DNA of 23,732 nucleotides from Candidatus Wukongarchaeum yapensis. Lineage in GTDB: Archaea; Asgardarchaeota; Wukongarchaeia; Wukongarchaeales; Wukongarchaeaceae. Made by a program: the position numbers and the translations under genes. Below the pieces are notes generated by a model, which was not told where the DNA came from, ran no database searches, and saw nothing but the letters and a program-made list of their open reading frames with translations. Each line of letters starts with the position of its first letter. Positions within the stretch are counted from its first letter, which is position 1. The stretch is taken from the NCBI GenBank assembly GCA_016840425.1, contig JAEOSI010000006.1, positions 1 to 23,732 of the forward strand, given 5' to 3'. This document shows positions 1 to 22,582 of the stretch, in pieces.

Positions 1-358
1 TTATTGCACTGGGGTGGTCTTCTACGAGGATGTATTGTGTGAGTTGGGCTGCCACCGCGCACATAGCAAAAAGTACTGCTGCTCTTTTTTCCTTCTGTAA
101 TTTGGCAACTGGCCAGTATTCGAATCCTACGGTGAAAAGTATTAGGTAGAATAGGAATGCTACCCAAAAGTTAGCTTGATTAAGGAAAGAGAAACCTGCC
201 GCGCCTTTCAAATCACCGGCGAAGGCGTATGTGAAGATTCCGAACACAATGAAAGAGATAAGTAGTCCCCATGCAGTTGCGTTAAATCCTTTACCGATGT
301 CTAACTCGGTTACAACAGCCTCTTTTTCGGCTTTTACTTTCTCTTCTGAGGATGCCAT
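1..358 (-). CDS. Integral membrane protein of unknown function, 3'-truncated by the window edge
   Basis: Not in the ORF track; translated by hand from ATG at 358: MASSEEKVKAEKEAVVTELDIGKGFNATAWGLLISFIVFGIFTYAFAGDLKGAAGFSFLNQANFWVAFLFYLILFTVGFEYWPVAKLQKEKRAAVLFAMCAVAAQLTQYILVEDHPSAI... The frame stays open to base 1, has three hydrophobic segments, and has a strong SD (GAGGAGGT) upstream. Confidence 0.75.
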   Translation of the reverse strand, partial: MASSEEKVKAEKEAVVTELDIGKGFNATAWGLLISFIVFGIFTYAFAGDLKGAAGFSFLNQANFWVAFLFYLILFTVGFEYWPVAKLQKEKRAAVLFAMCAVAAQLTQYILVEDHPSAI

Positions 359-716
359 TACATTTCCAACCTCCTCATCACGAATATACTATTTTCACTA
401 ATTCTTGAAGTTTTTCTCTTTTGATATTTTGTAAGGCAATAAACTTGTATTTTAAACATTTTTAAAGATTATGCTAACAATGCTCTATAGAAACCGAATG
501 AAAACCAAACGCCTTTGAAATTCGATCATAATGTTTAATGAGACCGCTTTAAGTTTTAGTTTTGAGCATGTTTTTTAAAATTCTGTATAAGTAGTTAAAC
601 AGCGCTCTTATAATTAAAACCAAAGTTCGATCCCTCTTGTATAAACTTACTGAAATAGCTCAGTCAATGCCGTTAGAGCCGCCTGTTATTAATTCGTTTT
701 TGCTTTCAAGCCTTCA

Positions 717-1639
717 TCATTTTTCACTACTTGCGATTGGTTCAGGCTCTATCTGCTTTCTCCCTCTCGCTTTACCCAGATAAAGGGCACTATTGATGAG
801 TCCGATATGACTAAAAGCTTGTGGAAAATTACCTAGCTGTTCACCTGTATCGGGGTCAATTTCTTCGGAAGAGAAGTGGTTGATGCTGCATATATCGCCC
901 CCGTTTCTTTATGGGTTAACAGCTTAAGAACCAAACCAGAGCGAGTAATTAACTCATGCCATTCAAAACTAAATATACACTGTTCGATTTCGCAACTATG
1001 AGCCCAATTTACCCAATATTCACTTGTATCTTTTAACCCCTTCACTTGCCTCTGGATCTACTGGAACATGATCTCCATACTGCATCACTAGCCATACTAT
1101 ATCGCCCTCTTTAACTGGATGTACCCCAACGGCTTCAGCGTCCCTTATCTGAAGTTTAAAGGGACTATCTAGAAGGGCCTGTTCATTATTACCAAAATGG
1201 TTATAACCCCTCTTTCAGTCGGTTTAATGATTGTTTGGGTTTGAGCATAATCAGATCGGGGTTTGAAAACGATTTTCAAGTCCATAAAACCTTTATCGCA
1301 TACTATTTTCCTGTATATGCCTTTCCGTAGCTGTTTTTCCGTGTTTTCTTCTGCTATTACTGGCATAAAATCTGCCAATATGGCAGTTCCTGTGGAAGTT
1401 TTGAAAACAGCTTGGAGAACATTAGTTCTTTCAATATATCGCTGTTCTGAATCGAAGTTATCTGAGGGATAAACGGCGAAGTGACCCCCTTTATCAATAT
1501 CCAGAACGCCTGCAAAAACACTTGGGGATTCTATGTGCGGGAAGCAACACCAGTCAATAGATCCATCTTTTCCTACCAGAGCGCAGGTATTTAGATCACC
1601 GATAATTCCATAATTCTCGATTTTTTTGTAATCCTTCAT
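717..1639 (-). pseudogene. Glycoside hydrolase family 15 (glucoamylase/trehalase-like) pseudogene
   Basis: 1169..1639 has the typical N-terminus (IENYGIIGDLNTCALVGKDGSIDWCCFPHIESPSVF). After a frameshift near 1200 another frame reads HFGNNEQALLDSPFKLQIRDAEAVGVHPVKEGDIVWLVMQYG. After a second shift near 1038 it reads YWVNWA...RSGLVLKLLTHKETGAIYAASTTSLP. It then jumps to the family C-terminal motif EEIDPDTGEQLGNFPQAFSHIGLINSALYL, with stop TGA at 717-719. Confidence 0.9.
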
Positions 1640-5196: not shown

Positions 5197-7062
5197 TCAC
5201 ACTGTATTTTGTTTATCAATTTTCTTTTTTTCTTTTTCTGGAGGTTTTTTGAAAAATATTTTTTCCCATGTTTCTCTATCCAAAAGCATAAGTTCATGGG
5301 CTTTCATTAAGTCGGTCTTAGTTACTATCCCGATAGGCTTTTTTGGATTCGTTAGCAAAACCACGGGAAGCCTCCCTATACCATACTTGAACATTCTATC
5401 CATAACGTGGTGCATCGTTTCGTGAGGCTTTATAGTTATAACGCCGGAGGTAAAGAGCTCACCTAAGGTTGTAGTTTTTAGATCAATATCGGGATTTTGT
5501 AATGTATTCCGGATATCAGAAAATGTAACAATACCTACAAGCTCTCCATCCTTATTTACGATGGGGTAACCAGTATGCTTTCCCTTCATAAAAATCTCAA
5601 CCGCTTCTCCAACCGGCATAGAATCTGGAAGGGTCTCAACAGGAACAGTCATAACATCTTGAACCTTGGTTTCATCCAATATATCGAGTAGATGACCTCT
5701 CTTCATTCGGAGACCGCGTTTATATAACCGTATATGATAAATATCTGCTTCTCCGATCAAAAATATTGCCAAAGCATATGATAAAATATTGGCTGCAAGA
5801 AGTGGAGGTAACAAACTAAACTCTCCAGTCATTTCAAACAGTAAAACAGTAGAAGCAATCGGTGCTCTAGCCGCCCCGCTAAATACTGCCCCCATAGCAA
5901 CTATCGCAACCATCTCCTTATCTGCCTCTGATATAAGACCAATGCTAACCATAATCTCTCCAAATATCGCGCCCCAAGCCACCCCAAGAAACAAAGAGGG
6001 GGCAAAAGCACCTCCACTTCCACCGGAACCACAAGTAGAACCTGTAGCTATCATCTTAAAAATCAAAAAACCTACTAAAGTAATCAAAGTTAATTCTCCC
6101 TTAATCATGTTCTTCATAACATCATAACCCTGACCTGTAATCTCTGTAACTCCCCCAAAAGCTATAACGCCTACCACAAGCCCGCCCAAAGCCGGTTTTA
6201 TTTCTGGTGGTAAATCTATTTTTTCAAAAAGATCCTCAATAAAATCAAACAATCTAACCCAAGAAAAAGCAATAAAACCCGCACATAAACCAAGTAATGC
6301 AAATAAAAACATTTGTAAACTATCATCAAACCTAAAAAATGGCAACTCAATGGCAGGGTTAGCACCTCTAAAATGGACCATAACAGTAGAAGCAGTAATA
6401 GATGCAAGCACAATAAGTACCAAAGCAAAGGGTTGCATTACACCAACAAGTACCTCAAACCCAAAAAGCGCTCCCCCAAGAGGCGCATTAAAAGTAGCCG
6501 AAATTCCAGAGCATATCCCTGCAGCAGCAAGCATTCTTCTCTCCTCAAACCTAAGATTCAAAAACCGACTAATAATCGAGCCTAATCCTGCACCGATTTG
6601 ACTACAAGGTCCTTCCCTGCCCGCACTCCCCCCCGTACCGATCGTGATGCTTGTAGCAATTGCTTTCACAAAAGGTACTCTTGTCCTTATTCTACCTCCA
6701 TGAAAATAGAGCGCTTCTAACGATTCAGGTATACCGTCACCTCTTGTCTCTAACGCAAGCTTAGTGACTATACCAACAGCGAGTCCTCCTAAAGGAGGAG
6801 CTGCTAGATAAATAAGATTCCACTTGAGTTCGCTATTTTTATTGGAATAGATCGTATCTGTTAAATAGTCTATCATATAAGTAAAAATAACTACTCCCAA
6901 TCCAACAATCAAACCAACAACGATACCAAGGGACATGAGTCTAACCTCCCCCCTATATCTAAATCCTCTCCACGCATTTTCTAGTCTTTTGTGAAAGCCT
7001 ATCCTGTTCGCTTTAGATTTTCCCTTCTTTTCACCTGATTTCTGTTCTTTTTTATTTTCCAC
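5197..7062 (-). CDS. CLC family chloride transporter with C-terminal CBS pair
   Basis: GDGIPE, GGSAGREGP, FNAPLGGALFGFE, GGSGGAFAP, DIY, then two CBS repeats (VQDVMTVPVETL..., GYPIVN, IGRLPVV). GTG at 7062 after GGTGG is preferred; the ORF extends to 7125. Confidence 0.93.
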   Translation of the reverse strand: MENKKEQKSGEKKGKSKANRIGFHKRLENAWRGFRYRGEVRLMSLGIVVGLIVGLGVVIFTYMIDYLTDTIYSNKNSELKWNLIYLAAPPLGGLAVGIVTKLALETRGDGIPESLEALYFHGGRIRTRVPFVKAIATSITIGTGGSAGREGPCSQIGAGLGSIISRFLNLRFEERRMLAAAGICSGISATFNAPLGGALFGFEVLVGVMQPFALVLIVLASITASTVMVHFRGANPAIELPFFRFDDSLQMFLFALLGLCAGFIAFSWVRLFDFIEDLFEKIDLPPEIKPALGGLVVGVIAFGGVTEITGQGYDVMKNMIKGELTLITLVGFLIFKMIATGSTCGSGGSGGAFAPSLFLGVAWGAIFGEIMVSIGLISEADKEMVAIVAMGAVFSGAARAPIASTVLLFEMTGEFSLLPPLLAANILSYALAIFLIGEADIYHIRLYKRGLRMKRGHLLDILDETKVQDVMTVPVETLPDSMPVGEAVEIFMKGKHTGYPIVNKDGELVGIVTFSDIRNTLQNPDIDLKTTTLGELFTSGVITIKPHETMHHVMDRMFKYGIGRLPVVLLTNPKKPIGIVTKTDLMKAHELMLLDRETWEKIFFKKPPEKEKKKIDKQNTV

Positions 7063-7299
7063 TAATTTCCCACCAATAATCACTAAAAAAACTCTTATAT
7101 ATGCGCTTAAATTACATTCTAGCATCTAAAAACAAAACAGTTTAAAAGAAGATTCTTAAAAATTCCTATATTAATCTTGTAAAACAACTTAAATTTTAAT
7201 TTTTCTCAAAGAAAATAAAAAAAGCAAATAAAGGCAACCCCGTATAATAATAATCGCTCACCTAACATTCCCTTTTCTTATCTGTTTCTATAGCCGTTT

Positions 7300-10200
7300 C
7301 TATCGGTTTTTATAGGACTTGAAGACGGTTTTTATAGGGTTTCCGTGGAGGGAGAAAACTCCCCAGTAAGCAGGGTTTTGAAATTTTTCATAAACAGCTT
7401 TCTTCGCCTCAAATACCCCTTCGTGTAACGGCCTTCCTTTCAGCAAATTTTCGTAGAACTTCTCCATAAAGATGGGTCCGACGATGTCGAACATCTCCCA
7501 GTTTGTAGCGAGAATGCTTGAAGCACCAGCAAGGAACAACCCTCGGATTAAACCGATGACTTCATCCCCTTTCTCTAACTCTCCCATGCCTGTTTCACAA
7601 GCACTTAAAACAAGCAAAGGAGTGCCAGAAAACCTCTCCCTTAGCATCTCGTCTACTGTAAACATTTCCGTCCCCTCTGGTCGGTGAAATAGTAGATGAC
7701 TGTTCCAAGGATAATCTGGGTCAAACTTCCCGTGCCCCGCGAAATGGATTACTGCAGAGTAAAACTTCATTTCTTCAAGAAAGTTTTCTTCTGTTGCTTC
7801 GTTCTCTTCGATTTTATATGCTTGAGTATCGTGTTTTTTCAAAACTTCCAAGATTTTTCCCACTTCTTTTTTAGCCCCGGGAAGGTTAAGCTCTGGTATG
7901 TTGAAATTCGGGTTTGAGACCAGTAAAACGCCTTCCCCATGCTTATCTTTCACCATGCAAGCGTTAACGATGCCGAGAGAGTAGCTTATAACGGTGGGAA
8001 GGTTTAAGCTAAGCCCCAACCCGTTATCAGGATTGGTGGCTATGTCCCACGGAAAATTATGCAGTTTACCGTGGGGAACAACAATCAAAAAAGTCTTCCC
8101 CTCTAAACTTTTCCACAAATTTTTTGGGACGGCCTTTCCAAGCCTTTTAGCAACAGCGGAAAGTATCTTCTCTACGTTCTCAACATCTTCCTCCCTGAGT
8201 AATGAACGAAAGGTTTTAACAGCTTCCCCAAGCTTTTTAACAGGTAAAGTACCTTCGTGAATCACTATTTTTTCCCCGTCCCAGGCAATAATCTTGAACT
8301 CTTCCTCCTTCTTTTCATCGTAGATAAACTCCCACACGGAAGCGTTATTCTTCTTGAGCAAAGATGCATATTCTGGCAAAGGATTATATTCAGATGTAGG
8401 TTTGGCAAGACCTGGATCGCGGCATTTCTCCATGATCTCTGCGCGGAGTCTGCGCAATTGGGCTCCGAAAACCTCGGCCTCCTCCAGTGCTGTTCTTGCT
8501 GCTCTTGTTTCTCTCTCGACGGTTTTCCTGATCTCTTCCTCTTTTTGGGTGAGTTCCCTCATCAACTCTTCTTGTTTTCTTAAAAGCTCTTCATGCTCAG
8601 GGCAGATCATCCGTTCTGCTTCAAACTCCTCCCATCCTCTTTTCTCCAGTTTATCAACTATCTCCCTTGCCTTAGAAAGCTCTATAAAACGCAAAGCTTC
8701 AAGGAGATGTTTCTCATCCTTATCCCTCTCAAATTCCTCGATTAAAAGGTTGGAAACCGCAGCATAAACATCCATAAGAGAGGCACGATAACTGGTCCTT
8801 ATAAGCTCCGAAGAAACTCCAGAAACCAAGCTCTCTGCAAGATCAGTAGACCTCTTTAAATATTCAAAAGCACGTTCAAACTCACCCAAAGACCGATACG
8901 CCCAACCAATATTACCCAAAACAACCTGCAAACCGCCACGATCTCCTATCTCTTCGCGTATTTTCAGGGATTTTTGGTAGTATTCTAGGGCTTCTTGATA
9001 CTTGCCCAAAGCCTCATACACTACTCCGATGTTGCTGAGGGTCACTCCTTCTCCTGCCTTGTCCCCTATCTCTTCGCGTATTTTCAGGGATTTTTGGTAG
9101 TATTCTAGGGCTTCTTGATACTTGCCCAAAGCCTCATACACTAAGCCTATATTGTTAAGACTCACTCCTTCTCCTGCCTTGTCCCCTATCTCCCCGCGTA
9201 TTATCAACGCTTTTTGTAAATATTCTATAGCCTCATCATACCTGCCAAAATCATAATACACTAACCCTATACTGTTAAGAGTTATCCCTTCTCCTTTTTT
9301 GTCCCTTATCTCCCCGCTTATTTTCAGAGATTTTTGATAGTGCTCTATGGCTTCTTGATATCTGCCCCACTCATTATACACTCCTCCTATGTTACCAAGG
9401 GTCGTGCCTTCTCCTTTTTTGTCCCCTATTTCCTCAAATATTTTCAGAGATTTTTGGAAATGTTCTAAGGCTTCTTGATACCTACCCCAAGATCGATACA
9501 CTACTCCAATGTTGGTAAGAGTCCTTCCTTCTCCTGCCTTGTCCCCTATCTCTTCTTGTATTGTCAACGCTTTTTGGTAATGAACTATGGCTTCTTGATA
9601 CCTACCCCAAGATCGATAAACTATTCCTATATTGCTAAGGATCACGCCTTCTTCTTTCCTTCTCCCTGTATCTTGGTATATTTTCAAAGATTTTTGGAAA
9701 TGTTCTAAGGCTTCTTGATACCTACCCCAAGATCGATAAACTCCTCCTATGTTGTTAAAGGCTGTGGCTTCTCCTAACTTGTCTCCTATCTCTTCTTGTA
9801 TTTTCAGCGCTTTTTGGAAATGTTCTATGGCTTCTTGATACCTACCCCACTCAGCATATACTACCCCGATATTGCTAAGGGTTGTGCCTTCTCCTCTCCT
9901 GCCCCCTATCTCCTCGCGTATTTTCAAAGATTTTTGGTAGTATTCTAGGGCTTCCTCATACCTACCCCAATCACTATACACTAACCCTATGCCGTTAAGG
10001 GTTGTGCCTTCTCCTGCCTTGTCCCCTATCTCCTCGCGTATTTTCAAAGATTTTTGGAAATGTTCTATGGCTTCTTGATACCTACCCCAAGATCGATAAA
10101 CCCCCCCGATGTTGCTAAGGGTCACTCCTTCTCCTGCTTTGTCTTCTATCTCTTCTTGTATTTTCAGCGCTTTTTGGAAATGTTCTATGGCTTCTTGATA

Positions 10201-11223
10201 TCTACCCCAAGCATCATACATTAACCCGATGTTGCTAAGGGTCACTCCTTCTCCCTCTCTGTCTCCCATCTCCTCGCTTATTTTCAGAGATTTTTGTAAA
10301 TATTCTATAGCTTCCTGATACTTACCCCAAGCCCGATACACTTCCCCAATGTTGTTAAGAGTTCTGCCTTCTCCTCTTCTATCTTCTACCTCCTCGCGTA
10401 TTTTCAAAGATTTTTGGAAATGTTCTATGGCTTCTTGATACCTTCCCCAAGCATGATAAACTAATCCTATGTTGTTAAGAGTCACTCCTTCCCCTCTCCT
10501 ATCTTCTATCTCCTCGCGTATCTTTAGAGATTTTTGTAAATATTCTATGGCCTCATCATACCTGCCCAAATAGTAATACACTAATCCTATGTTGTTAAGG
10601 GTCTCACCTTTTCCTCTCCTGTCCCCCATTTCATCACGTATTTTCAATGCTTTTTGATAATGATCTATAGCTTCTCTGTACCTCCCCCAAGCCTCATATA
10701 TTGCCCCTATGTTGTGAAGGGACGTGCCTTCTCCTTTTTTGTCCCCTACCTCCTCGCGTATTTTCAACTCTTTTTGGTAGTGTTCTATGGCTTCTTGATA
10801 CCTTCCCCAAGACCGATACATTCTTGCGATGTTGCCAAGGGTCACGGCTTGTCCTTCCTTGTGCTTTAGCTCCTCGCGTATTTTCAGCTCTTTTTGGTAG
10901 TGTTCTATGGCTTCCTGATATTTGCCCAAGACATAGCATATGAACCCCATGTTGCTAAGGGTTACAGCTTGTCCTTCCTTGAGCCCTATCTCCTCGCATA
11001 TTTCCAGAGATTTTCGGTAATGTTCTAAGGCTTCTTGAAACCTGCCCCAAGCCCTATAGGCTGATCCTATCTCATATATTACGATGGCTGCTTCCTCTTT
11101 TTTTTCAATTTTTAGAAGAATATTAACAGCTTTTAACCAGAGATTTGTCGCAACATCGTAATCATTCGCTTTTCTTGCCTTTTGACCTTCCTCGAATAAG
11201 GCTTCCGCCTCCTCAAAAGACAT
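7300..11223 (-). CDS. TPR-repeat CHAT-domain (caspase/HetF-like, clan CD) protease, 1307 aa
   Basis: 19 tandem 40-aa TPR-like repeats, a helical/coiled-coil linker (ALRFIELSKAREIVD), then CHAT motifs LIVVPHGKLHNFPW, LPGAKKEV, IHFAGHG (His), VLSACETG (Cys), GLFLAGASSILATNW and PAYWGVF. SD GGAGTG upstream. Confidence 0.95.
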   Translation of the reverse strand: MSFEEAEALFEEGQKARKANDYDVATNLWLKAVNILLKIEKKEEAAIVIYEIGSAYRAWGRFQEALEHYRKSLEICEEIGLKEGQAVTLSNMGFICYVLGKYQEAIEHYQKELKIREELKHKEGQAVTLGNIARMYRSWGRYQEAIEHYQKELKIREEVGDKKGEGTSLHNIGAIYEAWGRYREAIDHYQKALKIRDEMGDRRGKGETLNNIGLVYYYLGRYDEAIEYLQKSLKIREEIEDRRGEGVTLNNIGLVYHAWGRYQEAIEHFQKSLKIREEVEDRRGEGRTLNNIGEVYRAWGKYQEAIEYLQKSLKISEEMGDREGEGVTLSNIGLMYDAWGRYQEAIEHFQKALKIQEEIEDKAGEGVTLSNIGGVYRSWGRYQEAIEHFQKSLKIREEIGDKAGEGTTLNGIGLVYSDWGRYEEALEYYQKSLKIREEIGGRRGEGTTLSNIGVVYAEWGRYQEAIEHFQKALKIQEEIGDKLGEATAFNNIGGVYRSWGRYQEALEHFQKSLKIYQDTGRRKEEGVILSNIGIVYRSWGRYQEAIVHYQKALTIQEEIGDKAGEGRTLTNIGVVYRSWGRYQEALEHFQKSLKIFEEIGDKKGEGTTLGNIGGVYNEWGRYQEAIEHYQKSLKISGEIRDKKGEGITLNSIGLVYYDFGRYDEAIEYLQKALIIRGEIGDKAGEGVSLNNIGLVYEALGKYQEALEYYQKSLKIREEIGDKAGEGVTLSNIGVVYEALGKYQEALEYYQKSLKIREEIGDRGGLQVVLGNIGWAYRSLGEFERAFEYLKRSTDLAESLVSGVSSELIRTSYRASLMDVYAAVSNLLIEEFERDKDEKHLLEALRFIELSKAREIVDKLEKRGWEEFEAERMICPEHEELLRKQEELMRELTQKEEEIRKTVERETRAARTALEEAEVFGAQLRRLRAEIMEKCRDPGLAKPTSEYNPLPEYASLLKKNNASVWEFIYDEKKEEEFKIIAWDGEKIVIHEGTLPVKKLGEAVKTFRSLLREEDVENVEKILSAVAKRLGKAVPKNLWKSLEGKTFLIVVPHGKLHNFPWDIATNPDNGLGLSLNLPTVISYSLGIVNACMVKDKHGEGVLLVSNPNFNIPELNLPGAKKEVGKILEVLKKHDTQAYKIEENEATEENFLEEMKFYSAVIHFAGHGKFDPDYPWNSHLLFHRPEGTEMFTVDEMLRERFSGTPLLVLSACETGMGELEKGDEVIGLIRGLFLAGASSILATNWEMFDIVGPIFMEKFYENLLKGRPLHEGVFEAKKAVYEKFQNPAYWGVFSLHGNPIKTVFKSYKNR
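8812..11091 (-). repeat. Coding tandem array, 19 units of 120 bp (40 aa)
   Basis: Consensus EGxTLxNIGxVYxxWGRYQEAIEHxQKSLKIREEIGDKxG. The 120-bp period is visible in the DNA, e.g. 8945-9023 is identical to 9065-9143. Confidence 0.95.
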
Positions 11224-11542
11224 GGTTAAACACTCCTATAAGTAAAAAACTGGATAGAACATGGTTTGATAAAAGTCTTGCTGGATTTACCTATATTATG
11301 TTGTAAAAGTTTTTCTGCAAGCCTAAATTTCAAGATTTGTGAATTTCCTTTCCTCCAGATAAGGTAGAACCTCCCCCCAATAAAATAAAGAAAACCTTCA
11401 GGAAGGGAAAAAGTTAGAAAAACAAAAAAATAAGCATGAAAAACACTTAATCAAAAAAGAGAAAAAAAAACAACAAAAAAAGCTTTACAATAGACTTATC
11501 AATTTTTATCCTTCATTTGTAATAATTGGAGTGTTTGTTTGA

Positions 11543-12805
11543 ATGGGTAAAGGTGTTTCTGGATCTGAGCTTAAAAGTCGTCGTTTTTGTGTTTGTGTTA
11601 CTGGAAGTGTCGCTATTTTTGAAGGGGTGCGTTTAGTCCGAGAACTTTCTAAAAAGTTTAACGTTAACGTTATTGTAGTTATGTCTGAGACGGCGGCGGA
11701 GTGGATTCCCCCCCTCTTGTTCGAATGGGCTTCTGGGGAAACTCCTATCGTTAAATTAAGCGGGAAAGCGGAGCATATCAGGGTCTTCGAGGAGGGTTTT
11801 GAGTGTGTTGTTGTTTATCCAGCGACTGTTAACACTATTTGTAAAATGGCAAATGGTATCTGTGATACCTCAGTAACTCTCTTTCTTGCTGTCGCTTTAG
11901 GTTTAAAGCTTCCCGTTATTATGGCTCCTGCAGCTCACCTTTCATTATATGCGAATCCTATGGTTCAAGAGTGCGTTGAAAAGTTAAAAAGTCTCGGTGT
12001 AAGGTTTACTGGTCCTAGGTTAGAGGAGGGAAAAGCAAAGGTAGCTTTAGTAGAAGATGTACTAGAAATAATCCTTGAAACAGCTGAAGAAAAAGACCTT
12101 ATGAAAAAACGATTAAGCGGTGTGTCTTTCCTAATAACCGCAGGACCTACAAGAGAATATATTGATGATATCAGGTTTATGACGAACAGCAGTTCTGGAA
12201 AAATGGGCTTAGCTTTAGCAAAAGAAGCATTAAACCAGGGAGCCGATGTAACCTTAGTTATTGGAAAAGGTTCCACAGTAGCCCCCCCTCCAGGAATAAG
12301 AAGTATTTGGGCAGAAACCACCCAAGAAATGACCGATGCTGCCCTCTCGGAAATAGATCGAAAAAAACAAGATGTAATCATAAGTGTAGCCGCAATATCT
12401 GACTTCACTTTCAAAAAATTTGAGGGAAAAATTCCATCAAAAGAAGAGATTTCCGTCAAACTCACACCTCTACCAAAACTTGTTGAAATTATCCGAGAAA
12501 AATATCCTAGTACATACATGGTAGGCTTTAAAGCCGAATATAACGTGAGTGACGAAGAACTAATTAAGCGGGCGAAAAATAAGCTTAAAGAGTCTAAATT
12601 AGACATGGTCGTAGCAAACGATGTGGCGAAAGAAGGTGCAGGGTTCGGAACAGACACTAACGAGGTAATTATAGTGGACGAAAAAATCATTAAGAAATTA
12701 GGCAAACTGCCAAAAACAGAAATAGCAAAAATAATAATCGATTTAATAGCCGAAAAAATAGACCTTACACAAAAAGAAATTAAAATAATAAAAAATAGGC
12801 CTTAA
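11543..12805 (+). CDS. coaBC: Bifunctional phosphopantothenoylcysteine decarboxylase / phosphopantothenate-cysteine ligase
   Basis: VTGSVA, YPATVNTICKMANGICD, LITAGPTREYIDDIRFMTNSSSGKMG, AAISDF, VGFKAE, VVANDV. Confidence 0.95.
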   Translation: MGKGVSGSELKSRRFCVCVTGSVAIFEGVRLVRELSKKFNVNVIVVMSETAAEWIPPLLFEWASGETPIVKLSGKAEHIRVFEEGFECVVVYPATVNTICKMANGICDTSVTLFLAVALGLKLPVIMAPAAHLSLYANPMVQECVEKLKSLGVRFTGPRLEEGKAKVALVEDVLEIILETAEEKDLMKKRLSGVSFLITAGPTREYIDDIRFMTNSSSGKMGLALAKEALNQGADVTLVIGKGSTVAPPPGIRSIWAETTQEMTDAALSEIDRKKQDVIISVAAISDFTFKKFEGKIPSKEEISVKLTPLPKLVEIIREKYPSTYMVGFKAEYNVSDEELIKRAKNKLKESKLDMVVANDVAKEGAGFGTDTNEVIIVDEKIIKKLGKLPKTEIAKIIIDLIAEKIDLTQKEIKIIKNRP

Positions 12806-12823
12806 ACTACTAACTGTTTTCTT

Positions 12824-13888
12824 TTAGCCGTCTGCTATTCCTTGGGGAAGGATTGCGAAAACGGCTTCTCCTGCAGGGAGCAACGGGCTGTCAATCATCC
12901 GCGCTATCCTCTTTTCACCCTTAGATTTTCTGAGGTACAACCGCGTAGTGCAGCCGTGAGCTACGACATGTCCTCCTATGGGGGTGGTAGGGTCGCCGAA
13001 AAACGCGTCAGGTTTCGCCATAACCTGATTAGTCACGATCACGGCCAAATTATAAACCTCGGCAGCCCTCAAAAGTTGGTGAATATGCTTGTTAAGTTTT
13101 TGTTGGCGAGGAGCAAGGGTGCCTCTACCAATGTACTCTGCCCTAAAATGGGATGTTAGCGAGTCTACAACCAATAACCGAACATTTTTTTCCCTTAATT
13201 CAGGTAAAGCTTGATCAGCTAAAGCCATTTGATGATCTGAATTAAAAGCCCTTGAAACAAAAATATTCTTCAAAACTTCCCCCTTATCAACTTTGAATCT
13301 TTCAGCTATTTGAAGAATTCTCTCCGGCCTAAAAGTGCCTTCAGTATCTATATAAAACGCCCCTCCTTCAAGACCTCCAAGGTCTTTTTCTAATTGGACC
13401 GTCACACAAAGCTGATGAGCAATCTGGGTTTTTCCCGTCCTAAACTCTCCGAAAAGCTCAGTAATTCCGCCAGTTTCAATCCCTCCAGCAAGTAACTCGT
13501 CCAAATTTTTACTTCCTATGGTTATACGACTGATATTTTTCCGCCTCTCCCAAATTATATCAGCGGTAACAAAATCTAATTGTAAAGCATCTCTAGCAGC
13601 TTCTATCAAACTTCTTACTTGAGCGTCACCAAGATCAGTAACCGCAACAATCTCTGCCACAGAAGAAATAGCTATCGATTCAAGAGTAGCATATCCCGAT
13701 TCTTCCAACCTCTTAGCTGTGGCAGGCCCTACTCCCGGCAAATTTTGTAAAACCTCAGCAACTGACCGTTGTTCCACCAAAACATCGCCTATTTCGTCCA
13801 CAGGTTGGTCTTCTGCACTTGAAGAAGATTCTCCCTCGTTTTTCTCGCTTTTAGATTCTTCCTCGCTTGTCGAACTTTTCCTTGGCAT
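12824..13888 (-). CDS. radA: DNA repair and recombination protein RadA (Rad51/RecA family)
   Basis: HhH domain [78 protein letters not shown] at 13888; an in-frame GTG at 13897 is possible. Confidence 0.97.
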
Positions 13889-14056
13889 CCTTCTCACTTT
13901 TCCATAAAAAATAAAATTACATACATAATAATTTCTTAATCCCTTTTATAAGCTTTGCAAACATCTAAAAACACAAAAAATTTTTTCATACCTTAAAAAA
14001 TCACCCTTTTTTCCTAATTTATATATAATCACCCTAATTTTATTATATGATCCCCC

Positions 14057-14980
14057 CTAAACCTTTTTTTCCTCCAAATTTTCCATTTTTTGAATCAATC
14101 TTATTATGGCTAAGGAGGAATGTAGAGCTTCTTCAAAACGGATCGTACGTGTTCCTTGTTCGGGTATCATGTTGATGTAGAAGTCAAAAAGGTTTCTGGG
14201 GTCCTCGTTTAACCTTTTAAGAATATTTTTAAGTCCCTCACGAGGACTCCCAAAGACTAAAAAAATTTTTTCTTTAAGTAAAAGCTGGCAGTGAAGTTCT
14301 TTAAACTTTTCAGAGATTTTGTCCCCCAGCCTAGAAGTTCCTATCCATAAACCCTCAGACTGTTTTTTAACATAATCTTTCAAGCTCTCTTTAATCGTAT
14401 TGACATTATAACCCCAATATTCTGGCACATCCTCCCTCTTTGCAGGGTATGCGTAAACCTCGTCTCTTTCTTTCTTTATTTTTACAGTGATCCTTTGCCC
14501 TAGTTTTACGCGATTTTTTATGGTTAAATTGTTTTTTTTATCGATGAGAATCTTGATCTTTTTTTTCAAACCTATATCACACATGATTTTTTTCTTAGAG
14601 ATCTCTGTTATAACAGCTTCTCGGAACTCGCCGTCACTAAGATCCTTGATTTTAACTTCCAGTTTATGTTGGGGCGTTGCTAAGGGAGGTAAAATACCCG
14701 CATATTTCAGTTCTTCCTTTAGGGGAAACAGATACTTGCGCAGATATTGAGGTGTTTCTAAGTATCTAAGGATTAGTGAGATCAATTCCATCTCCTTTTT
14801 TTGGGATTCGTAGCTGATGTCTGGATAAATAATCGCTTCATCAACTCGGTAGATTGCAAGGGCGCGCCCAAAAACTCCTAATTTCGTTGTCGAATCGCGC
14901 AAGCCTGAAGATTCTGAAAGTAGAGATGCAGGAGCACAAACTATTAGCCGTTTTCTCTTTTTATTTGGTATCATTAACAT
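14057..14980 (-). CDS. SPOUT-family RNA methyltransferase (MTH1/DUF171/SPOUT1-like)
   Basis: GRALAIYRVDEAIIY, YLETPQYLRK, LKYAGILPPLATPQH, YWGY, LVFGSPREGL, NMIPEQGTRTIRFEEAL. Confidence 0.93.
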   Translation of the reverse strand: MLMIPNKKRKRLIVCAPASLLSESSGLRDSTTKLGVFGRALAIYRVDEAIIYPDISYESQKKEMELISLILRYLETPQYLRKYLFPLKEELKYAGILPPLATPQHKLEVKIKDLSDGEFREAVITEISKKKIMCDIGLKKKIKILIDKKNNLTIKNRVKLGQRITVKIKKERDEVYAYPAKREDVPEYWGYNVNTIKESLKDYVKKQSEGLWIGTSRLGDKISEKFKELHCQLLLKEKIFLVFGSPREGLKNILKRLNEDPRNLFDFYINMIPEQGTRTIRFEEALHSSLAIIRLIQKMENLEEKKV

Positions 14981-15347
14981 AACCTAAAGTTTTTAAAACC
15001 ATGTTTCTGCCTTAAACAAGGTTATTGTATTTCAATATTATTTCAGACAATAATAAGAATATTGAACCTATTATTTCAAAGGGACTGTTATGGGGTAACG
15101 TTTTATGTTATAGTATGCGAAAAGTAAAACTGTTCGTCAGAGGTAATTTTAGGTTATATGGTAAGCGTTCAGAGGAAAACTTTATTTTTTATAAATATTT
15201 CAGTTTTGAGTTAGTAATGTATTATTTAAGGAGAAGTTTGTTAAAATTATACGGTAATTTATGGCCATTATATCGTTTTATATGCCTGTTAACTTTCGGA
15301 ATCTAAAGCTAACATTTAAAGGTTTTAATTTATAAGTGAATTACAAT

Positions 15348-22174: not shown

Positions 22175-22582
22175 ATGAGTTGTCCTGAATGTGGAGAAGC
22201 TGCCGATCAGGTTTCAGTTGATGAAATGCAATGCTACAAATGTGGCCATCGTTGGAAATTAGACTGGAAAGTAATCAGCCACGGTGAAAAAGGCAAATGT
22301 CCTGAATGTGGAGAAGCTGCCGATCAGGTTTCAGTTGATGAAATGCAATGCTACAAATGTGGCCATCGTTGGAAATTAGACTGGAAAGTAATCAGCTACG
22401 GTGGAAAAGGCAAATGTCCAAACTGTAAACGAATAGATTCCATTATTGTTTATATGGCCGTTGATCCTAACACAAAAAAGACCCCTTATAATGGGAATAT
22501 CAGTATTAAAGTTTTATGTCTTCAGTGTGGGCTACAATGGAAGATAGAAAGAGCCAAGGAATTGGAAAGACAAATAGGATGA
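22175..22582 (+). CDS. Small triple zinc-ribbon protein of unknown function
   Basis: Six CxxC pairs: two units of CPEC-x13-CYKCGHRW and a third CPNC-x27-CLQCGLQW. GGGGG purine tract upstream. Confidence 0.8.
   Translation: MSCPECGEAADQVSVDEMQCYKCGHRWKLDWKVISHGEKGKCPECGEAADQVSVDEMQCYKCGHRWKLDWKVISYGGKGKCPNCKRIDSIIVYMAVDPNTKKTPYNGNISIKVLCLQCGLQWKIERAKELERQIG
22181..22419 (+). repeat. 117-bp (39-aa) in-frame tandem duplication
   Basis: 22181-22297 vs 22298-22414: the first 99 bp are identical, with two substitutions in the last 18 bp (CAC/TAC, GAA/GGA). Confidence 0.95.

Follow-up and report, generated by a model that had tools for sequence, protein, structure and literature searches.

An accessory TPR-CHAT protein from the Asgard archaeon Candidatus Wukongarchaeum yapensis, a plausible sensor-protease

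Introduction

What is the role of a large, caspase-like repeat protein that is encoded by itself among the housekeeping genes of an archaeon? The question is raised by a stretch of DNA of 23,732 nucleotides from Candidatus Wukongarchaeum yapensis (assembly GCA_016840425.1, contig JAEOSI010000006.1, positions 1 to 23,732 of the forward strand), referred to here as the window. The minus strand of positions 7300–11223 encodes a protein composed of an array of tetratricopeptide repeats (TPRs), a middle module, and a C-terminal CHAT domain, a caspase-like protease domain of clan CD. Bacterial TPR-CHAT proteins and eukaryotic ones such as TTC28 exist. Few uncharacterized caspase-like proteins of prokaryotes are as numerous as the stand-alone TPR-CHAT proteins, and roles are known only for special cases, namely Csx29, DdvA, and SAVED-CHAT.

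A first-pass annotation, made from the letters of the window alone, proposed a single-gene sensor-effector in which the repeats bind a ligand and the CHAT domain cleaves a target encoded elsewhere. Here, the sensor-protease reading is found to be plausible. The interpretation that we favor, and consider rather probable, is that of a soluble cytoplasmic cysteine protease whose groove binds a polypeptide, whose CHAT domain cuts a protein encoded elsewhere, and whose role lies in conflict or stress.

Results

Domain architecture and catalytic dyad

The TPR-CHAT gene is the sole long reading frame in its region, with a product of 1307 residues (Table 1). Pfam identifies 19 TPR_1 stretches (TPR_12 at an E value of 1e-191) and, at residues 1033–1294, the CHAT domain PF12770 (E value of 1.5e-39; 136.7 bits against a cut-off of 24). 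When solved structures were searched with the plain sequence, DdvA was the sole protein matched (E value of 1.1e-5), and in the sequence alignment its residues H862 and C907 fall on His1164 and Cys1209, which confirms the earlier assignment of an intact catalytic His and Cys. Cys1209 and His1160 do not vary among 30 homologs, of which at least 90% retain His1164. A profile built from the family matches Csx29 best among solved structures (E value of 2e-12, in an alignment that includes the middle module), followed by DdvA (2e-6) and SAVED-CHAT (3e-3), and reaches E values of only 0.75–1.1 against separase chains. The separase family profile Peptidase_C50 (PF03568) gives no match to the TPR-CHAT protein at E values up to 10. 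By sequence, the family thus appears nearer to prokaryotic CHAT proteins than to separase, and would be a CHAT-family member that lies outside every characterized subfamily.

An AlphaFold2 model of residues 800–1307, computed with the 30 homologs as input, has a predicted local distance difference test (pLDDT) score of 84.7 and a predicted template modeling (pTM) score of 0.87; a second model, of residues 560–1307, has a pLDDT of 88 and a pTM of 0.85. In DALI-like (VIA) comparisons, the shorter model superposes on Csx29 with a Z score of 29.5 (364 residues aligned, root-mean-square deviation of 3.2), on the protease domain of Chaetomium separase with 28.3, on human and yeast separase with ~27, on DdvA with 22.5, on SAVED-CHAT with 20, on gingipain with 19, and on metacaspase and caspase with 12–14. 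The Foldseek ranking of structural matches agrees with this order, and the modeled CHAT domain has a caspase-like fold. The region preceding the CHAT domain had been described as a coiled-coil linker. It is modeled instead as a helical bundle with a small β subdomain, comprising five long helices, a three-stranded sheet, and further helices, an arrangement that is conserved across the family and that superposes on the MID domain of Csx29 and the pseudo-protease region of separase. Because 580–605 residues of Csx29 are aligned with the longer model (Z scores of 25–26.7), the overall build is predicted to be TPR-MID-CHAT, as in Csx29. The repeat part of the same model aligns to LGN-peptide complexes at 27–30% identity. 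Both models show disorder in the loop that follows the catalytic Cys. A homodimer prediction of residues 835–1307 scored 0.00 and carries no weight either way.

The protein has no signal peptide and no credible transmembrane segment: its N terminus is acidic, and the highest Kyte-Doolittle hydropathy window lies inside the CHAT core. It is predicted to be cytoplasmic and soluble.

Table 1. Features of the TPR-CHAT locus and its flanks (window coordinates)
Feature	Coordinates	Strand	Remarks
Complete open reading frame, TPR-CHAT protein	7300..11223	-	1307 aa; stop codon 7300-7302
N-terminal degenerate helical cap	11104..11223	-	aa 1-40; acidic; without signal peptide
19 tandem 40-residue Pins/LGN-type TPRs	8824..11103	-	aa 41-800; scaffold near-invariant; unit positions 3, 7, 10, 14, 17, 18 hypervariable
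Middle module	8128..8823	-	aa 801-1032; superposes (model) on Csx29 MID and separase pseudo-protease region
CHAT domain (caspase-like, clan CD)	7342..8127	-	aa 1033-1294
Catalytic His1164 codon	7732..7734	-	in HFAGHG; aligned to DdvA H862
Catalytic Cys1209 codon	7597..7599	-	in SACETG; aligned to DdvA C907; invariant in 30 homologs
Divergent intergenic region shared by the TPR-CHAT gene and coaBC	11224..11542	.	AGGAG at 11233-11237, 9 nt before ATG
3' flank with T-runs	7126..7299	-	similarity to close relative and to mangrove metagenome contig stops at 7223

The repeat array and its concave face

The repeat anchor recurs 19 times, at residues 65, 105, and so on to 785, with an exact spacing of 40 residues and without insertions or deletions across residues 41–800. 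Tandem Repeats Finder reports a 120-nt period with 17.6 copies at 8945–11052, and the array seen at first pass is recovered by this measure, by the anchor, and by Pfam alike. The repeats resemble those of Pins (E value of 7e-47) and LGN (4e-44), so that both period and similarity place them with the 40-residue TPRs of the Pins/LGN type. At the DNA level, the units are on average 71% identical, with a maximum of 92% between units 17 and 18, values that point to an old array with one recent duplication.

The variation among repeats is unevenly distributed. Almost no variation is seen in helix B or at the structural residues of helix A within the 17 central repeats, and entropy maxima are found at unit positions 3, 7, 10, 14, 17, and 18. 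Alignment to consensus TPR proteins shows that these correspond to canonical TPR positions 34, 2, 5, 9, 12, and 13, the positions described by Magliery and Regan as ligand contacts of the concave face (PMC1261162). The variability of the repeats thus appears to be confined to concave-face positions, which is consistent with a sensor.

The array also differs between copies of the gene. A second TPR-CHAT gene is present on contig C217 of the same assembly, where the contig end cuts off only ~14 N-terminal residues; its identity to the window copy is 71%, and its repeats number 14, five fewer than the 19 found there. The gene is therefore not single-copy. As judged from their alignment, the two paralogs differ mainly in the lining of the groove (and in repeat number). 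In a close relative, a contig with flanks that are 92–96% identical carries an ortholog at the corresponding site; this has 17 repeats and lacks unit 3 and one of units 17/18 of the Wukongarchaeum array. A frameshift within its array splits the frame into 204 and 1021 residues.

Comparisons between ortholog and paralog gave ratios of nonsynonymous to synonymous substitution rates (dN/dS) of 0.10–0.13 for the middle module and 0.12–0.23 for the CHAT domain. These low values show purifying selection on both and argue for a working protein. Within the array, dN is 0.98 at the six variable positions compared with an overall dS of 0.70, and dN/dS of the scaffold is 0.2; between the paralogs, the six positions have a dN/dS of 1.3–1.4. 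Positive selection was considered as an explanation of the latter value and rejected, as the sites had been chosen for their variability, the aligned repeats are possibly non-orthologous, and the close ortholog pair gives 0.23.

Distribution, clade, and host

An exhaustive HMMER search of 1.84 billion cluster representatives returned 83,081 matches at an E value of 1e-3 or below and 21,000 at 1e-10 or below, with only ~22 representatives scoring below 1e-70. A scan of genomes with the family profile found at least hundreds of TPR-CHAT loci in Bacteroidota, Acidobacteriota, cyanobacteria, and others, with no Asgard loci among the matches listed. To judge from these searches, the architecture, which had been taken for a rarity, is ordinary and very common in prokaryotes. 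A TTC28-like, eukaryotic identity was considered for the top matches of 2.5–2.8 thousand residues and discarded, as those with names come from bacteria (KSB1, JGI metagenomes).

The immediate clade is narrower. In a FastTree phylogeny of 243 CHAT modules, a group with 100% support unites the Wukongarchaeum protein with its paralog and two near relatives; it is nested in a clade of 40 rows (99% support), whose named sequences include 17 from Asgard archaea and none from a bacterium. The next relatives beyond this clade include Ca. Argoarchaeum. The nearest named homologs come from Helarchaeota, Heimdallarchaeota, Hodarchaeota, and Promethearchaeota. The assembly itself (2.16 Mb in 277 contigs, 92% complete) encodes an actin scoring 444 bits, and because of this actin and the named Asgard lineages of the nearest homologs, the Asgard host, raised at first only as a possibility, is well supported.

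When the family profile was compared with 301 genomes of the phylum (match at an E value of 1e-40 or below), the subfamily was found in 11 of them, and in 5 of the 90 that are of high quality. The positive genomes belong to several families and hold 1–3 copies each; one of them has two copies on one contig, ~1.6 kb apart. Because of this scattered occurrence and varying copy number, the TPR-CHAT gene is accessory and not housekeeping. The mark of a housekeeping role, according to the first-pass annotation, would be strict conservation of a single-copy ortholog whose repeats do not vary. The gene was found to be patchy and duplicated, with 14–19 repeats, and a housekeeping role is thus unlikely. 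Metagenomes of sediment, marsh, and mangrove origin also contain the gene, in data from more than 10 studies. A genome of the same genus (G001) has no CHAT match and also lacks coaBC and the CLC gene; the region was not assembled there, so this genome is uninformative. In one metatranscriptome, two short contigs map to 7892–8476, and the rest of 7100–8900 is uncovered in that run.

Gene neighborhood

The gene is flanked by 319 nt upstream and 174 nt downstream, with an AGGAG motif in the former and T-runs in the latter, as expected from the earlier observation that it has intergenic regions of its own. Its neighbors in the window encode two CLC channels, TrkA, an MTS methyltransferase, CoaBC, RadA, an RNA methyltransferase, a NiFe hydrogenase cluster, NrpR, and glutamine synthetase. 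No CRISPR array is present in the window, and a PADLOC scan of ten neighboring window proteins yielded a generic methyltransferase domain as its sole match, with no defense gene among them; the absence of a CRISPR locus, noted at first pass, thus stands. So does the description of the gene as stand-alone, since the examined neighborhoods of Asgard homologs have no conserved partner gene in common.

The junction with coaBC was compared between relatives, as had been suggested. The close relative keeps the TPR-CHAT gene beside coaBC, and the CLC-CBS chloride-channel gene that lies 3' of it in the window (5197–7125) is absent from the relative's otherwise syntenic contig; one paralog was counted in the Wukongarchaeum assembly. 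Similarity to a mangrove metagenome contig stops at 7223, the same point as in the close relative. An insertion of 3.6 kb with two genes (L019:5454-9110) separates coaBC from the TPR-CHAT gene in the relative. One encodes 147 residues and has two paralogs in the Wukongarchaeum assembly; the other encodes a 697-residue protein with a hydrophobic N terminus, a coiled coil, and ~9 TPRs. Both paralogs of the TPR-CHAT gene adjoin genes for coenzyme A (CoA) biosynthesis: the window copy is divergent from coaBC (11543–12805), and ~2.2 kb separates the C217 copy from genes for PPS_PS (phosphopantothenate synthetase) and a GHMP kinase (pantoate kinase-like) at C217:5518-7240. This proximity was not seen near other Asgard homologs; it was noticed post hoc and may be due to chance.

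Several genes recur near individual Asgard homologs. A BD-FAE/Abhydrolase_3 (Peptidase_S9-like) gene lies within ~3 kb of three of them (L105, L107, and the contig of P0016), an Arf-like GTPase gene is near three others, and WD40 genes were seen twice, in orthologous contexts. All three were considered as partners and judged to reflect lineage synteny or chance. The Helarchaeota homolog P0005 is divergent from an SMC gene, with two ScpB-family genes and an Arf-like GTPase gene within 6 kb (L101:2173-5718, 11872-15129). The homolog P0015 lies in a defense-like island that contains AIPR, two N6/N4 DNA methyltransferases, TGT, a UvrD-like helicase, and RAMP (L108:292-16940). Neither of these two patterns recurs in the other contexts examined.

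Elsewhere in the window and the genome, some further features were observed. The trehalase-like/GH15 gene at the start of the window (1–1639) consists of a 156-residue TREH_N piece and a separate C-terminal frame; its counterpart in the close relative has 612 residues, ~0.9 kb of which is without a counterpart in the window, owing to a deletion or an assembly gap. A 117-nt unit is tandemly duplicated with 98% identity at 22181–22419, inside a double zinc-ribbon gene (22175–22582). Two actin-family frames of the assembly (C97:541-1704 and C20:3187-4386) align with the Pfam actin model in a permuted arrangement (63/69-408, then 5-70). A separate Peptidase_C14 (caspase/metacaspase-like) gene is encoded in the same genome (C207:940-1569).

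Discussion

Proposed mechanism

In the mechanism that we propose, the 19-repeat solenoid of the Pins/LGN type would bind an extended polypeptide in its concave groove, with the six hypervariable positions in each unit determining the specificity of binding. The dyads of Csx29, separase, and DdvA are misaligned at rest and are switched on by the binding of a partner or substrate (PMC11506125). By analogy, occupation of the groove may either present a substrate to His1164 and Cys1209 or relieve a misaligned resting dyad, after which the CHAT domain would cut a protein encoded elsewhere. An accessory role in conflict or stress signaling, antiviral defense included, is the most likely class of function; defense proper is a serious prospect that nonetheless falls short of an even chance.

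A number of observations weigh against this interpretation. The window neighbors are housekeeping genes, and the contexts of Asgard homologs that were examined hold no conserved partner, substrate, or defense gene beside the TPR-CHAT gene. A variable concave face is a generic property of TPRs (PMC1261162), the raised dN at the six positions is partly circular, since it was their variability that led to their choice, and the close ortholog pair shows no elevation at them. The frameshifted ortholog may represent a dispensable or decaying gene, or a misassembly of the repeats, in the close relative. Both contigs of the RNA library could stem from carry-over of DNA.

Alternative functions

The evidence that makes the gene accessory also bears on a more specific possibility, that of an antiviral abortive-infection sensor similar to Borvo, in which the groove recognizes a viral protein and the protease destroys essential host proteins. 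Patchy distribution, paralogs, changes in repeat number, and diversified binding positions would all be in keeping with such a sensor, as would the differing flanks of close relatives and the one homolog in a defense-like island; Borvo is, moreover, a single-gene CHAT defense system on record. The resemblance to BovA is limited to 19 bits over the CHAT core, however, a point that also tells against the sensor-protease interpretation in general, and neither defense genes, in the window or in the other homolog contexts examined, nor marks of mobile elements were seen. We regard this alternative as rather unlikely. A bolder version of it takes the Asgard clade as a one-protein immune or surveillance sensor: a groove of 14–19 repeats, with about six predicted specificity residues per 40-residue repeat, would read a long extended stretch of a foreign (e.g., viral) protein in modular fashion, gain and loss of repeats together with paralogy would retune the target, and recognition would activate the caspase-like domain. 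This we offer as speculation with a low chance of being correct.

The protein could also be mainly a self-processing or scaffold protein, its CHAT domain cutting only its own chain or nothing at all and its solenoid serving as an assembly hub. Autoproteolysis has been proposed for DdvA (PMC11506125), and the disordered loop after the catalytic Cys would suit it; an intact and conserved dyad in a CHAT domain under purifying selection makes it improbable. The least credible of the alternatives would make the protein an archaeal equivalent or precursor of separase, with the kleisin of the SMC complex as its substrate. The modeled fold matches separase protease domains as strongly as it does Csx29 (Z scores of 27–28), and the Helarchaeota homolog described above has SMC and ScpB genes nearby. 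The fold match is common to Csx29, however, the family profile separates the two by an E value of ~1 for separase against 2e-12 for Csx29, Peptidase_C50 is not matched, the subfamily occurs in few genomes of the phylum, and adjacency to SMC was seen in one context only, so that we give this idea very little credence. The special bearing on the origins of separase and caspases that the first-pass annotation saw in an Asgard CHAT protein is not upheld: on present evidence, the TPR-CHAT gene does not inform either origin. A literature search for Asgard together with "separase" or "CHAT domain" found nothing relevant. The value of the polypeptide-sensing protease favored here lies elsewhere, in that the gene is a clean, intact TPR-CHAT example and that its paralogs, which differ in repeat number and groove residues, form a handy pair for questions of how repeats select ligands.

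Comparison with known systems

Of the characterized proteins, Csx29 from type III-E CRISPR "Craspase" is the closest in build, with the same module order of TPR, middle domain, and CHAT. The two differ in that the NCBIfam model NF041237 gives the Wukongarchaeum protein 36–40 bits against a cut-off of 300, identity is ~16%, the TPR array of the Wukongarchaeum protein is much longer, and neither Cas7-11 (gRAMP), Csx30/31, RAMP, nor a CRISPR array is found in the 23.7-kb window. Separase (Peptidase C50) likewise has a helical-repeat N terminus followed by a two-lobed protease module, but shows no significant sequence signal, and the Asgard gene is patchy and accessory (11 of 301 genomes) rather than universal. 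DdvA, a Myxococcus anti-sigma factor (PDB 8ROT), is a TPR-CHAT protein whose dyad, seen in its resting state, aligns residue for residue with His1164 and Cys1209. In contrast to the Wukongarchaeum protein, it is a periplasmic dimer with a transmembrane helix and an anti-sigma domain, and its fold match is lower than that of Csx29.

BovA of the Borvo defense system is similarly a stand-alone CHAT protein that is thought to work alone; the PADLOC model for it gives only 19 bits here, over profile positions 509–666 of 711, which is the CHAT core. The SAVED-CHAT protein is set apart by its SAVED domain, as Pfam finds only TPR and CHAT in the Wukongarchaeum protein and the match to 8tl0 is limited to the CHAT core. 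The TPR domains of Pins/LGN (GPSM2) share the 40-residue unit, at 27–30% identity, and, according to the titles of their PDB entries, hold extended peptides in the inner groove; these proteins, polarity adaptors of eukaryotes, have 8 repeats and lack a protease. The most general likeness is to the bacterial "CHAT domain-containing tetratricopeptide repeat proteins," which have the same architecture and often include the middle module. The Wukongarchaeum protein is 36–44% identical to members of its own clade and at most 32% identical to proteins outside it. The TPR-CHAT kind is thus known and very common, and what is new is a lineage-specific member of it, from a clade that has only Asgard archaea among its named members.

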